DNA from: an uncultured Mycoplasmatota bacterium
Lineage (GTDB): Bacteria; Bacillota_I; Bacilli_A; RF39; UBA660
DNA length: 64,000 nt
Assembly (NCBI GenBank): GCA_900551525.1
Contig: URWD01000001.1
Span: 5,164-69,163, forward strand
Direction of reading: 5' to 3'
The notes beneath the pieces are model-generated. The model saw nothing but the letters and a program-made list of their open reading frames with translations. It searched no databases and was not told where the DNA came from. Below are positions 31,757 through 64,000 of this stretch, one piece after another. Positions within the stretch are counted from its first letter, which is position 1; each line of letters begins with the position of its first letter. A program made the translations under genes and the position numbers.

Positions 31757-31833
31757 GGGGAATTAGCTCAGTTGGCTAGAGCACCACGCTTGCACCGTGG
31801 GGGTCGCGGGTTCGAGTCCCACATTCTCCACCA
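31757..31833 (+). tRNA. tRNA-Ala (anticodon UGC)
   Basis: Cloverleaf with a 7-bp acceptor stem that includes the G3:U70 Ala identity pair, anticodon loop cTTGCAc, T-loop GGTTCGAGTCC, and an encoded CCA. Confidence 0.9.
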
Positions 31834-59927: not shown

Positions 59928-61526
59928 ATGAAGAAATTTATAAAAAAAATTAAAAGTAATAAATTTTTATATATATTAAGTGTTTTAATTGTGGGAGTAT
60001 TTTTTATACTTATTGCAAGAGTTACTTATGCTTTTTTAGCACCAATTATTAATAATGCTCAGACTAATATAGTTATAAAAGGTAATACTGTAGATGAATT
60101 TAAATTAAAGGTGGGAAATCCTCTTAAGTTAGATGCAACACCAACTACTTTAAAAGAAAATGGTACTAATTATACTACAAGTACTACAGCTACTGCTTCT
60201 TTAAAAGCTAATAGTACTAAAAATACTGCTACTTATAATTATTATTTGTATTTTCAAATAGAAAATAATACATTTACATATACGAGTGGAACCACACCAG
60301 AAATAATACTTACTATAACTAATCCAAATGGTGAAGAAGTTACATCAATTAATGGCCTTACTTATGGGACTTTTAATGGTGTATCAGGGTTTGACGTAAC
60401 AACTCAAAATGGCTTATTTAGTATTGCCAATAACTATCAAATAACATCTAATTCAAGTACAACAGCAACAACCCAAGAATGGACAATAACATTAACTTAT
60501 CTAAATCAAAGTTATGATCAATCAGCAAACTTTGGCAAGAGTATGGAGGTAAATGTACTGTTACAAAAAGAAGAAATTTCATTGCCCTTTCATGAAAGTT
60601 GTAATGGTGATACATTAGCATGCCATGTAGCAAAACTATATACAGGAACTCAAGGAGAAAATAATATTTATTATCATGATGGAAAACTAGAAAATGGTAT
60701 CGATGATAAATCGTATAGATATGCCGGAGCAAGTGAAAGTGTAAATAATTATGTATGTTTTGGAAGTAGTGAAACAACATGTCCAACAGAAAATTTATAC
60801 AGAATAATTGGTGTATTTAATGGTGAAACAAAGTTGATTAAGTCAACAGCTGCAACTAGTACATTACTAGGAACAGATGGAGATTATTATTTGTTAGGAA
60901 CAGATGGAGATTATGAGTTGGATACGATTTACTATTACTGGAATAAGCATGCAACAACAAACAATGGGAAAAACACTTGGAGTTATAGCTTATTAAATAA
61001 AGTGAACTTAAACACAAATTTCATAACAAATATCGGAGATGAGTGGGCAAAAAAAATAGCAATGACAACATGGAAAGTTGGAGGAAATACACGTGCAAAT
61101 ATAGCTGAAGTAGTTCCAGCTATAACGTATCAAAATGAAATCGTAAATCCAGTAACAACAAATACTATGGATAACACAACAGAATATACGGCGAAAATTG
61201 GCTTAATGTATGTGTCTGACTATGGGTTTGCAGCAAGTCCGAGTGCATGGACAAGTACAATGGATTACTATAATGAGCCCTCAATAACGTCAGTGAATTG
61301 GATGCTGATAGAGAAATATGAATGGACAATTACACGTGAATCTAGTGAAACTTACTATGCCTTTTTAGCTGGAATAACTGATGGCTTAAATGGTGTTTTC
61401 GGTTACATGGTGAATAGCTTAGACTCATACTATAGTTTGATTGTTCGCCCAGTCTTCTATCTTGAATCATCAGTAACCTATGTCTCAGGTACTGGTACTT
61501 CAAGTGATCCAATAAGAATCAATTAA
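59928..61526 (+). CDS. Secreted protein, paralogue of 16171..17607 (TasA/SipW-signal-like N-terminus, C-type-lectin-like C-terminus ending ..IVRPVFYLESSVTYVSGTGTSSDPIRIN)
   Basis: Signal/TM KFLYILSVLIVGVFFILIARVTYAFLAP. Blocks conserved with 16171: HESCNGDTLACHVAKLYTGTQGENNIYYHD, NLYRIIGVF, GLMYVSDYGFAA. Composition is uniformly AT-rich (no GC patch). Confidence 0.7.
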   Translation: MKKFIKKIKSNKFLYILSVLIVGVFFILIARVTYAFLAPIINNAQTNIVIKGNTVDEFKLKVGNPLKLDATPTTLKENGTNYTTSTTATASLKANSTKNTATYNYYLYFQIENNTFTYTSGTTPEIILTITNPNGEEVTSINGLTYGTFNGVSGFDVTTQNGLFSIANNYQITSNSSTTATTQEWTITLTYLNQSYDQSANFGKSMEVNVLLQKEEISLPFHESCNGDTLACHVAKLYTGTQGENNIYYHDGKLENGIDDKSYRYAGASESVNNYVCFGSSETTCPTENLYRIIGVFNGETKLIKSTAATSTLLGTDGDYYLLGTDGDYELDTIYYYWNKHATTNNGKNTWSYSLLNKVNLNTNFITNIGDEWAKKIAMTTWKVGGNTRANIAEVVPAITYQNEIVNPVTTNTMDNTTEYTAKIGLMYVSDYGFAASPSAWTSTMDYYNEPSITSVNWMLIEKYEWTITRESSETYYAFLAGITDGLNGVFGYMVNSLDSYYSLIVRPVFYLESSVTYVSGTGTSSDPIRIN

Positions 61527-61545: not shown

Positions 61546-62484
61546 ATGAAAATATTATGTATAGGTCATTCAAGTTGGGATATAACTGTTCCAGTTGATG
61601 AATACCCAATTGAAAATACTAAATATAGATATAATGAAAAATATTCATCTGGTGGTGGTCCTGCATCTAATGCTGCATATCTACTTGGTAAATGGGGCAT
61701 AGATACAGTTATTGCAAGCACTATAGGTTCTGATGACTTTGGAACAAACATTAAAAAAGAGTTTCAAGATATCCACGTAAATACAGATTATATAGAAACT
61801 AGTTATGATAAAGATACATCTTTATCATTTATCCTTATAAATAAAAAAAATGGCTCTAGAACTGTATTTAATGTTGCAACAGAACATCCTGCATTAAAAA
61901 AACTAAGTTATGATTTTACTCCAGATATTATTTTTACTGATGGACATGATTATGGTGCTAGTCAAAATGCAATTAGTAAATATCAAAATGCAATTAGTAT
62001 AATTGATGCTGGTAGAGTAACACCAGAACTACTTGAATTATGTAAATATATTAAATATATAGTATGCAGTAAAGGTTTTGCTGAAACAGTTACTGGTATG
62101 AAATTTGATTATAGTAATCCAAGTATATTAGTTGCTATATATAATAAATTACAAGATAAATACCCAAATAGTAATATTGTAATTACTTTAGAAGAAAAAG
62201 GGTGTTTATATCAAGTGGGTAATGAAATAAAAATAATGCCAGGTCTTAAAGTAAATGCAGTAGATACTACTGGTGCTGGAGATATATTTCATGGAGCATT
62301 TACTTATGGTATAGCAAATAATTTCGATATGGAAAAAACTATAACACTTGCAAATATTGCAGCAGGTTTATCTGTTACTAAAATTGGATCAAGATTATCA
62401 ATTCCAACTTTATCAGAAGTACTTGATTATTATGCAAAAAAAACTGGTATGGTAAATAATAATGATAACAAGCAAAACTCCTAG
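61546..62484 (+). CDS. PfkB-family carbohydrate kinase (ribokinase-like)
   Basis: N-terminal GG motif (SSGGGPASNAA) and the C-terminal DTTGAGD anion-hole motif. Confidence 0.85.
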   Translation: MKILCIGHSSWDITVPVDEYPIENTKYRYNEKYSSGGGPASNAAYLLGKWGIDTVIASTIGSDDFGTNIKKEFQDIHVNTDYIETSYDKDTSLSFILINKKNGSRTVFNVATEHPALKKLSYDFTPDIIFTDGHDYGASQNAISKYQNAISIIDAGRVTPELLELCKYIKYIVCSKGFAETVTGMKFDYSNPSILVAIYNKLQDKYPNSNIVITLEEKGCLYQVGNEIKIMPGLKVNAVDTTGAGDIFHGAFTYGIANNFDMEKTITLANIAAGLSVTKIGSRLSIPTLSEVLDYYAKKTGMVNNNDNKQNS

Positions 62485-62716
62485 ACTTGATTTACATGGA
62501 GAGATCGTTCCCATGGTAGAAGTACTTGTAAATGAATTTATTAGGGATAATAAGGCTATGAATAATGATACGATTATCATTATTCATGGGAAAAGTACTA
62601 ATATACTTACGGAAGAAGTACATAATGTTTTAAGAAAGCATAAAGATGTAATAAGATATTATAAAAATAATTGGAATTTGGGAGAAACTATTGTAGAAAT
62701 AAATACTAAAAAATAA
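62462..62716 (+). CDS. Small Smr (MutS2 C-terminal-like) domain protein, 84 aa
   Basis: RLDLHG...(E)..V..F......IIIIHGKSTNILTEEVHNVL matches Smr-domain blocks (LDLHG / HGKG). Confidence 0.65.
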   Translation: MITSKTPRLDLHGEIVPMVEVLVNEFIRDNKAMNNDTIIIIHGKSTNILTEEVHNVLRKHKDVIRYYKNNWNLGETIVEINTKK

Positions 62717-62749: not shown

Positions 62750-62948
62750 TTGACATAGTTGCTTTTGCTGGTATATAATATAAATGTACTTGAAAGAGTA
62801 TAACATGAAAATGTTAATCGCCTACCGGTGGTGCGAGCAATAAGTTATCCGGTGTGAGTATGTTAATCGCTTACTGGTGGCGCGAGCAATAAGTTATCCA
62901 GTATGAAAATGTAAAACTTAATAGAAAACTATTGAGTTTTTTTATTTG
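62750..62948 (+). ncRNA. Structured-RNA cassette A: sigma-A promoter (TTGACA 62750-62755 / TATAAT), conserved leader, 2.3 tandem 49-nt hairpin-pseudoknot repeats (units at 62813 and 62862), weak terminator 62925-62948
   Basis: Unit 1 has stem tcgc/gcga, loop cTACCGGtggt pairing with downstream CCGGTG. Unit 2 has loop tTACTGGtggc pairing with CCAGTA. No ORF. Confidence 0.55.
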
Positions 62949-62993
62949 AAATTATAAAATTTATAATAGCAATAAAACAAAGCAGCGATTTGC

Positions 62994-63180
62994 TTGACAT
63001 AGTAGCTATTCCAGCGTATAATATAAATGTACTTGAAAAAGTATAACAGAAAGTGTTTCTCGCTCTCGGATGGTGCGAGTAATAAATTATTCCGAGCGAT
63101 AATGTTTCTCACTAACGGGTGGTGTGAGTAATAAATAATCCCGTTGTTTGCTCAATCTAAACATGTTGAGCTTTTTATTT
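62994..63180 (+). ncRNA. Structured-RNA cassette B (paralogue of A): TTGACA 62994-62999, 17-nt spacer, TATAAT 63017-63022, same leader, two 49-nt units (63055, 63104), strong terminator 63150-63180
   Basis: Unit 1 has stem ctcgc/gcgag, loop tCTCGGAtggt pairing with TCCGAG. Unit 2 has stem ctcac/gtgag, loop tAACGGGtggt pairing with CCCGTT. Terminator gctcaa-tctaaacatg-ttgagc followed by T5. Confidence 0.55.
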
Positions 63181-63248
63181 TGTATTTTTAACAAATAAAT
63201 GTTTGCTTTTGCTATAAGAGTATGGTATTATATTAGTAGGTGGTTATA

Positions 63249-64000
63249 ATGGTTTATTTAAAAGAATTTAGTTTAGTTAGTGAAAATACTGAAAATATAA
63301 TTTTAAGTGAAGAAAAAAGAACATATTTTCATAATCAATATCCATTTAGAATATTTCCAAAAAAAGAATTTAAAGATATTAAATTTAGTGATGTAACTAT
63401 ACTTTATGGTGGTAATGGCTCTGGTAAATCAACAATTTTAAATATAATTGCTAATAAACTTAATTGTGATGGATCATTTGGGGTACATGGAGAAATGATG
63501 ATGAAGTATTTGGAACATTGCAGATTTGAAACATCTATGGAATATTTTGAAGAAGCTAAGATAATAAGAAGCGATGATGTATTTGATTATATATCTAATG
63601 TAAGAAGAATAAATAACCGAGGATTTAGTCAAAGAGAAATGTTATTTAGAGAATACTTTGATAATAAAGATAAAACAATTGATGATATGAATGACTATCA
63701 AAATTTGAAAAATTCAATTGATGCTAAAAGAAAAAGTGCATCAAATTATGTTAGAAATAGAGTACTTGATAAAGATGTAAAAGAGCAATCTAATGGAGAG
63801 GCAGCCCTTATGTATTTTGTATCTGAAATAAAAGAAAATAGCTTATATTTACTTGATGAACCTGAAAATAGTATGTCTGCCGCGATGCAACTTAAACTCA
63901 CTAAATTTTTAGAAGAATCTGCAAGATTCTTTAATTGTCAATTTATTATTGCTACTCACTCACCATTTTTACTTGGTATGAACGGTGCCATAATATATGA
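63249..64000 (+). CDS. AAA_21/AAA_15-type (ABC-like) ATPase, 3' truncated by window edge
   Basis: RBS aggtgg. Walker A GGNGSGKST. The C-terminal block LYLLDEPENSMSAAMQLKL..F....QFIIATHSPFLL (D-loop/H-loop of SMC/ABC-like AAA_21) is as found in OLD/Gabija/PARIS/RloC-type defence ATPases. The frame is open to the end of the window. Confidence 0.75.
   Translation, partial: MVYLKEFSLVSENTENIILSEEKRTYFHNQYPFRIFPKKEFKDIKFSDVTILYGGNGSGKSTILNIIANKLNCDGSFGVHGEMMMKYLEHCRFETSMEYFEEAKIIRSDDVFDYISNVRRINNRGFSQREMLFREYFDNKDKTIDDMNDYQNLKNSIDAKRKSASNYVRNRVLDKDVKEQSNGEAALMYFVSEIKENSLYLLDEPENSMSAAMQLKLTKFLEESARFFNCQFIIATHSPFLLGMNGAIIY

Follow-up and report, generated by a model that had tools for sequence, protein, structure and literature searches.

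The window analysed here comprises 64,000 nucleotides (nt) of contig URWD01000001.1 from an uncultured Mycoplasmatota bacterium. Near its 3' end, two cassettes, hereafter A and B, are located on the plus strand between a gene for an Smr-domain protein and a gene for an AAA_21-type ATPase. They share one layout, in which a perfect sigma-70 promoter is followed by a hairpin at the 5' end, a pair of 49-nt units and a terminator. A first-pass annotation, made from the letters alone, had described the region as type III antitoxin-like or as a novel structured RNA. Comparison with sibling strains and other species makes it very probable that the two cassettes encode CptI-type antitoxin RNAs and derive from cptIN type III toxin–antitoxin (TA) loci whose toxin genes have been lost.

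The promoter of cassette A (TTGACA-N18-TATAAT; 62750–62779; all features described are on the plus strand) matches the consensus at 12/12 positions and is followed by a leader hairpin (GUACUU-GAAA-GAGUAU; 62786–62801; −3.8 kcal/mol, z = −3.4). The first unit, A1, spans 49 nt (62809–62857) and was delineated by its sequence, by nhmmer and covariance-model (CM) matches, and by covariation of both its helices. Stem 1 (S1) joins 62818–62821 with 62833–62836, loop 1 (L1) is the single position 62822, stem 2 (S2) joins 62823–62828 with 62849–62854, and an A-rich loop 2 (L2) occupies 62838–62848. Unit A2, also of 49 nt (62858–62906), was recovered by the CM (62.0 bits, E = 6.8e-13), direct-repeat detection, nhmmer and covariation, with S1 at 62867–62870/62882–62885 and S2 at 62872–62877/62898–62903. 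Unit borders were set by analogy with the Eubacterium rectale processing site GA|AAAUG, in the numbering of CptI_Er. Following A2, a partial third repeat, GAAAAUGU (62905–62912), brings the array to ~2.2 repeats. Cassette A closes with an intrinsic terminator (62913–62943) consisting of a 12-bp AU-rich stem, an AAAA loop and a U-run (−10.2 kcal/mol, z = −4.0), with 0/200 shuffles equally stable.

Cassette B likewise begins with a promoter that matches the consensus at 12/12 positions (TTGACA-N17-TATAAT; 62994–63022), so that both sites, annotated at first as near-consensus sigma-A promoters, are in fact perfect. Its leader hairpin (63029–63044; −4.0 kcal/mol, z = −4.0) belongs to a leader common to both cassettes; the near-identity reported for this leader was borne out (97%), over a length of 32 nt rather than the 45 nt given. 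Unit B1 (49 nt; 63051–63099; CM 73.6 bits, E = 1e-15) has S1 at 63059–63063/63075–63079, L1 at 63064, S2 at 63065–63070/63091–63096 and L2 at 63080–63090, and is near-identical to units that other species carry ahead of short CptN genes (loci L041 and L054, for instance). Unit B2 (63100–63148), identified by sequence and nhmmer match, has S1 at 63108–63112/63124–63128 (ctcac/gtgag) and S2 at 63114–63119/63140–63145, and the array amounts to 2.0 copies. The intrinsic terminator of cassette B (63150–63182; −8.0 kcal/mol, z = −2.2) was the only one detected by a simple terminator scan, which missed that of cassette A even though it folds; each array thus ends in a terminator, as had been annotated. 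Beyond the window, a TTGACA/TATAAT-type promoter also heads the homologous arrays upstream of cptN genes, and an equivalent 5' hairpin is found at the array start in other species. A degenerate unit pattern gave exactly four matches in the 64 kb, compared with zero expected. The region had been described as free of open reading frames (ORFs): nothing supports coding, but mechanical ORFs of 34–58 aa do overlap the cassettes.

All four units have the fold first described for them. S1 stems of 4–5 bp (tcgc/gcga twice, ctcgc/gcgag and ctcac/gtgag) enclose an 11-nt loop, of which positions 2–7 are complementary to a hexamer starting 12 nt past the stem. The resulting S2 partners are TACCGG/CCGGTG (in which the first pair is G.U), TACTGG/CCAGTA, CTCGGA/TCCGAG and AACGGG/CCCGTT. 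To assess this pairing across the family, 247 nhmmer unit matches were reduced to 116 distinct sequences and aligned (alignment A2). Standard pairs occupied 89.1% of cells compared with 79.6% after shuffling, with 0/500 shuffles reaching the observed value, and double-sided changes were counted in 150 cells compared with 47.6 in shuffles, being seen at 9 of the 11 pairs. When the 3' partners were slid by 1–3 columns, pairing fell to 31–53%. Within S2, the pairs from columns 16–48 through 20–44 all covary (at pair 20–44, 70 units have GC and 42 have AU), and S1 covaries less but consistently (at pair 12–29, 105 units have GC and 9 have AU). The sixth pair of S2 (columns 15–49) is unsupported across the family, being unpaired in 76/116 units, so S2 is generally of 5 bp; the six-nucleotide loop–tail complementarity annotated at first therefore holds for the four window units, its outermost pair lacking support among their relatives in general.

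Pairing is also kept within units better than between them, as S2 pairs at 5/5 positions in 130/144 units when partners are taken from the same unit and in only 61/144 when they are taken across units. In 51 of 72 two-unit arrays the S2 cores of the two units differ, with compensatory changes. L1 is 1 nt and L2 follows the consensus YAAUAARUNAU. Covariation of both helices supports an H-type pseudoknot in each unit, and the compensatory covariation claimed for the four units was upheld on the 116 distinct homologous ones. A covariance model, as proposed at the outset, was built from alignment A2 and matches the window units. Nested minimum-free-energy folding of whole precursors, which was also tried, gave long inter-unit hairpins and was set aside as uninformative because pseudoknots are not modelled.

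The toxin gene was found in sibling strains. In L012 and L021–L028, a 269-aa ORF lies exactly between the terminator of cassette A and the promoter of cassette B, giving the order Smr – cassette A – 269-aa ORF – cassette B – ATPase (eight loci, L021–L028, were shown for protein P0121, which the index lists in 77 blocks). The first 150 residues of the 269-aa protein match E. rectale CptN (PDB 4RMO; E = 5.7e-19), and with the NCBIfam model NF047359 ('type III toxin-antitoxin system CptIN family toxin'; cut-off 90) the protein reaches 153.9 bits. Pfam and PADLOC returned nothing useful for it, including no Pfam ToxN match. The cptN start lies ~45 nt past the cassette A terminator in these strains. 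In the window, ~20 nt (62944–62966) replace the ~850 bp of the siblings that contain the cptN ribosome-binding region and the 269-aa ORF. Global alignment with L021 showed that homology ends at 62943 (L021:2956), in the U-run of terminator A, and resumes at 62962–62967 (L021:3806–3814), which is the toxin stop codon. The window thus holds antitoxin genes of the cptIN family and not a complete cptIN system.

The same cassettes occur beside CptN in other genomes. At an unrelated locus (L029–L033), the same cassette, with A-type units, precedes a long toxin of 46% identity. A scan of the GTDB species-representative genomes with a CptN alignment yielded 448 stretches encoding a relative, of which the best 80 loci were kept; the representative set holds one genome per species, and some genomes give more than one locus. 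Nearly all of these 80 loci came from metagenome-assembled genomes of uncultured gut Bacilli, 'Tenericutes' or Erysipelotrichaceae (e.g., Candidatus Onthousia faecipullorum), and in nearly all the toxin came after a promoter, a 5' hairpin, two 49–51-nt units, a partial repeat (GAAAAUG) and a terminator. Their units are very close to the B units of the window, and B-type arrays stand directly upstream of a CptN-family toxin in ~75 loci of other species. The type III antitoxin-like architecture proposed at first is thus corroborated twice, by the CptIN toxin between the cassettes in siblings and by the same cassette ahead of CptN homologues elsewhere.

Several variants were observed among these loci, which are often arranged in tandem or accompanied by additional arrays that lack a toxin. 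Full cptIN loci occur in tandem in L035 and L038, and L050 carries a frameshifted second toxin. Five loci (L040, L051, L052, L077 and L105) have orphan arrays after the toxin, and two arrays precede one toxin in three (L072, L073 and L092). Most relatives of the toxin have 155–163 aa, and a long CptN subgroup of 250–272 aa was also recognised (L012:2906–3715, P0147, P0176, P0188), the C-terminal extension of which (~115 aa) is poorly conserved and has no Pfam, PADLOC or NCBIfam match. Long toxins accompany A-type units (UAAUCGC...GCGAGCAAUAA). A pattern scan of viral contigs returned one chance match and one complete cptIN locus, and no orphan arrays in phages. The complete locus (L117:4560–5220), which encodes a toxin of 62.7% identity, is on a 63-kb contig classed as viral (IMGVR_UViG_3300011008_002676) and suggests phage or prophage carriage, or else a misclassified contig.

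The window units were then compared with the structurally solved antitoxin. CptI_Er, an H-type pseudoknot of 45 nt, has a single base (G13) as L1 and a long A-rich L2 (A27–G35) kinked at U30; this L2 forms an A-minor twist, and the complex consists of two CptN and two CptI molecules (PMC4627078). Published cptIN arrays have repeats of 40–48 nt in 1.9–3.4 copies and are exclusively chromosomal (Blower et al. 2012, PMC3401426), and cptI repeats have been described as nearly identical (PMC12283969). The E. rectale cptI locus was retrieved via a 97%-identical CptN, and its array is 45 nt × 2.1 (TGAAAGTTTACCACTGACCGATATGTGGTATATAAATGGTCGGGT). A monomer start at AAGUUU reproduces the published numbering exactly (A7–A10, G13, G22–G24, A27, A29, U30, A31, A33 and G35), which puts cleavage in E. 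rectale at UUGA|AAGU. A MAFFT alignment brought the E. rectale repeat and the window units into register, and they share the order of parts, namely an AAGU/AAAU-GUU tail, a 5-bp S1, a 1-nt L1, S2, a short junction, the S1 3' strand, an A-rich L2 in which a U comes after AA, the S2 3' strand and a GA tail. Homology to CptI_Er at the RNA level is therefore plausible from the sequences, short of proof.

As in known cptIN loci, a promoter, ~2 tandem repeats and a Rho-independent terminator are followed, in the siblings, by a toxin of the CptIN family (NF047359). Shared features further include the 1-nt L1, a long A-rich L2 with an AAUAA-type stretch containing U, single-stranded GA|AA(A)(U)GUU tails between units, and a chromosomal location in a gut Firmicute. 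The window differs from these loci in that both cassettes lack a toxin gene. The period is 49–51 nt here compared with the published 40–48 nt (1–3 nt above the range), L2 has 11 nt compared with 9, and the S2-to-S1 junction has 4 nt compared with 2–3. Repeats of an array usually differ in S2 (the 51/72 arrays noted above), whereas published repeats are described as near-identical, and the partner toxin of cassette A has 269 aa, including the ~115-aa C-terminal extension without a recognised domain. ToxIN and AbiQ/antiQ follow the same general scheme as this family, in which the endoribonuclease toxin cuts the repeat array of its own locus into pseudoknot monomers, and these in turn inhibit it. 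ToxI itself has 36-nt repeats in up to 5.5 copies, which form triplex-based pseudoknots and heterohexameric complexes (PMC4627078). The sibling toxin belongs to the CptIN family and not to ToxN, the repeat is 49 nt as opposed to ~36, and there is no sequence similarity. Rfam gave no match for the cassettes at the gathering threshold (whole window) or at E ≤ 10 (region) beyond a chance small RNA (sRNA). Since Rfam 15 fails to recognise even the authentic cptI array of E. rectale, this negative result carries no information.

We infer the workings of the arrays from intact loci, which siblings provide for cassette A and many other species for B-type cassettes. Transcription of the 5' hairpin and ~2.2 repeats of 49 nt would start from a strong sigma-A promoter, and a leaky terminator would restrict read-through into cptN. 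By analogy with E. rectale, the CptN endoribonuclease would cleave the precursor between units, at GA|AAAUG. Each 49-nt monomer is predicted to form an H-type pseudoknot with a 5-bp S1, a 1-nt L1, a 5–6-bp S2 and an A-rich L2 in the minor groove of S1, which would bind CptN to give an inactive complex. Cleavage and inhibition are established for CptIN_Er, and by analogy the window arrays would have behaved alike. In the window, the cptN of cassette A has been removed by a deletion that left the scar at 62944–62966. Cassette B is toxin-less in every examined strain of the species, which indicates that its toxin was lost earlier. The window arrays therefore probably make unprocessed ~150-nt RNAs without a target in cis, and may at present lack a function.

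Consistent with this, cassette A looks like a decaying relic. It is intact in 9/9 toxin-bearing loci examined and eroded or absent in toxin-less strains, which points to relaxed selection after toxin loss. Some toxin-less strains match the layout of the window. In L004 and L010, a single A1/A2 hybrid unit is left of cassette A, and its S2 contains a C.A mismatch; L001, L005 and L008 have a single cassette that combines the promoter of A with the units of B; L009 and L011 also have a single B-type cassette; and L006 retains one unit only. These layouts can be ordered into a series that begins with the tandem cptIN loci (L035, L038), continues with the frameshifted second toxin (L050) and proceeds to the array – toxin – orphan array arrangement (L021 here and the five loci mentioned above elsewhere). 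It then leads to two orphan arrays, as in the window, and to recombined or single units (L001, L006, L010). The window represents the end of this decay series. TA logic predicts this order, with the toxin going first, since prior loss of the antitoxin is lethal.

Several observations weigh against the reading of both cassettes as cptIN antitoxin genes that have lost their toxins. A tblastn search of the 64-kb window, the rest of the genome not being searched, found no CptN or ToxN homologue, in agreement with the earlier statement that no ToxN/AbiQ-like gene follows; the family assignment hence rests on the sibling strains and other species. Cassette B lacks a toxin in every strain of this species examined, and B2, unlike the last unit of canonical arrays, is not followed by a 3' GAAAAUG site. 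The window-type CM matches the E. rectale repeat in register but weakly (17.1 bits, E ~0.06 in a 70-kb search). B2 differs at only 1–3/49 positions, and terminator B with its spacer at 0/57, from lineages with 22% divergence at four-fold sites of the ATPase gene, which is unexpected for a pure relic, although these figures rest on a small number of sites. B1 differs from the same lineages at 8–10/49 positions. B2 and its terminator are present in 21/21 loci of the species complex, toxin-bearing ones included. Cassette B, being retained everywhere, may thus have kept some role, and the conservation of B2 and the terminator could reflect residual function (immunity in trans or insulation of the ATPase promoter), recombination, or constraint linked to the promoter.

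These data bear most directly on the alternative that toxin-less arrays are kept by selection, either as 'anti-addiction' RNAs acting in trans against CptN elsewhere, on mobile elements or in phages, or because the terminator of cassette B insulates the ATPase promoter. We regard this as unlikely. Besides the ubiquity of cassette B and the near-invariance of B2 and its terminator, it would account for the double compensatory changes that distinguish B1 variants between lineages, for both promoters being still perfect, and for the recurrence of orphan arrays beside cptIN loci in other species. There is also a precedent, in that phages evade ToxIN by pseudo-ToxI repeats (PMC5086642), which are likewise antitoxin-type arrays without an adjoining toxin gene; those are phage-encoded and counteract a host toxin, whereas the arrays here are chromosomal remnants at the toxin locus of the siblings. 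Its narrower form, in which the arrays, cassette B above all, are selected free-standing immunity RNAs that constitute a chromosomal 'anti-addiction' module against CptN toxins elsewhere or on mobile elements, we consider slightly less likely still. If true, two non-identical pseudoknots per array would extend coverage to more toxins or keep units from misfolding with one another. Broad immunity is argued against by the high specificity reported for CptI antitoxins towards their own toxin (PMC5086642), and neither the window nor the 20-kb sibling loci yielded a second cptN. Moreover, cassette A decays or vanishes once its toxin is gone, and B1, which has decayed in L004 and has been deleted from L006, diverges at about the neutral rate. 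The conservation that remains, over few sites, could equally stem from recent recombination or from constraint on the adjoining ATPase promoter.

It is very improbable that the cassettes serve the downstream ATPase as a new RNA partner, antitoxin or regulator. In favour of this reading, cassette B lies directly upstream of this gene in every strain of the species, and the protein resembles the defence ATPases PtuA and AriA at the domain level. The gene (63249–64000, cut by the window end; 285 aa when complete; Pfam AAA_21, 2.5e-15) is a neighbour outside the system, and a promoter of its own, separate from cassette B, was read from the sequence at 63203–63231 (TTGCTT-N17-TATTAT with an upstream TG). 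Searches of Pfam, PADLOC and NCBIfam with the ATPase gave generic AAA_21/ABC matches only. It has neither a partner nuclease or effector gene nor the variable defence-island context of Septu PtuAB, PARIS AriAB, Gabija or AbiL. Instead of the defence-type operon proposed at first, it is a single gene followed in every locus by ireB-ruvX-mltG; the full order after it is ireB, ruvX, a small ORF, mltG/yceG, an O-methyltransferase gene, two U32 peptidase genes, greA and tig. In the sister species (L014, L018; ATPase 70% identical), the ATPase has the same position and promoter, with a 63-nt NUDIX–ATPase spacer and no cassette. Because this promoter is conserved in the cassette-free sister species within housekeeping synteny, the ATPase is not the partner of the RNA. 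That candidate was rejected, as the contexts of the 90% and 70% homologues represent core synteny and the 70% homologues are cassette-free. Cassette B, furthermore, closes with a terminator, and homologous cassettes elsewhere precede CptN and not an ATPase. A functional partnership with either flanking gene, as first suggested, is not supported.

Two further readings merit next to no credence. Tandem riboswitches or other cis-regulatory pseudoknots of the preQ1-I or SAM-II type, controlling a downstream gene, would share the topology of the units (a short S1, an A-rich loop making A-minor contacts with S1 in the minor groove, and pairing of a 3' tail with the loop), and the A-minor twist has been noted as common to CptI and SAM-II (Rao 2015, PMC4627078). 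The order promoter – aptamers – terminator – gene would also fit. Yet no Rfam match was found even at E ≤ 10, cassette A precedes another promoter and no gene, and the gene downstream of cassette B has its own promoter, so that no regulated gene follows. In addition, S2 varies freely and conserved single-stranded tails flank the units, as for tandem repeats processed by a nuclease, and the family is tied to CptN toxins. Repeats acting at the level of DNA, such as iterons, recombination sites or a degenerate CRISPR-like array, would be compatible with intergenic tandem direct repeats that vary in copy number between strains; this we hold to be just as improbable. The complementarity is interleaved, as expected of a pseudoknot, a promoter and a terminator frame each array, and covariation keeps pairing within units better than between them. 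G.U variants, among them the U.G wobble of the B2 S1 stem (CUCAC/GUGGG) in strains L001, L006, L008 and L009, fit RNA of the plus strand only and thus argue against a DNA-level element.

The flanking genes were annotated correctly at the outset, with Pfam matches for both. The 84-aa Smr-domain gene (62462–62716; Pfam Smr, E = 2.8e-12) is a neighbour outside the system that lies upstream in all sibling loci, whether the toxin is present or absent, and the identical protein occurs on numerous contigs of this species from human-gut metagenomes. The spacer between the Smr and ATPase genes ranges from 242 to 532 nt across strains. Smr alleles of 83, 84 and 87 aa were observed, the last going with the toxin-bearing loci L021–L028. 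The Smr ORF start overlaps the end of a pfkB-family kinase gene (61546–62484) by 23 nt, which suggests translational coupling. Two genes upstream of Smr, at 59928–61526 (with equivalents in L001–L012), the product has an N-terminal hydrophobic segment and is hypervariable among strains (491–537 aa), some alleles matching DUF6273 and others nothing; it is a strain-variable surface or secreted protein beside the conserved polC and pfkB genes. Downstream, the ATPase of L008 (10548–11398) is split into ORFs of 220 and 75 aa, probably by a frameshift, so the ATPase may be dispensable in some strains. A ~300-nt non-coding spacer between the ATPase gene and ireB, upstream of the latter (L002:11646–11957, just past the window end; L014:4859–5144), is strongly conserved between species that share only 70% identity in the ATPase. 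It has a promoter-like site (TTTACA-N17-TATAAT) followed by conserved sequence and no significant Rfam match, and may be an unannotated leader or sRNA. Elsewhere in the window, a tRNA gene (31757–31830; 63.7 bits) was the sole Rfam match at the gathering threshold.

Taken as cptIN antitoxin genes, the cassettes belong to a known type III TA family, and the window is a further example and not the undescribed arrangement or new kind of RNA that had been proposed. The new points are modest and comprise the orphan arrays, the non-identical repeats within an array, the 49–51-nt period, the long-toxin variant and a large clade in gut Bacilli. The reading of the letters alone did pick out a genuine structured and covarying RNA, which comparative data place firmly in this family, and the unrelated AAA_21 ATPase next to it is a caution against inferring function from adjacency. 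As for Rfam, an alignment like the one assembled here could seed a family, so that such arrays would no longer be flagged as unknown. For uncultured gut Bacilli, the loci point to a large cptIN clade, of which we found no description in the papers on type III TA systems that were consulted. Within the species, the case documents the decay of a type III TA system in which the toxin is lost first and the antitoxin arrays linger, with strain-level intermediates all visible, from array – toxin – array through array – array and hybrid array to a single unit.

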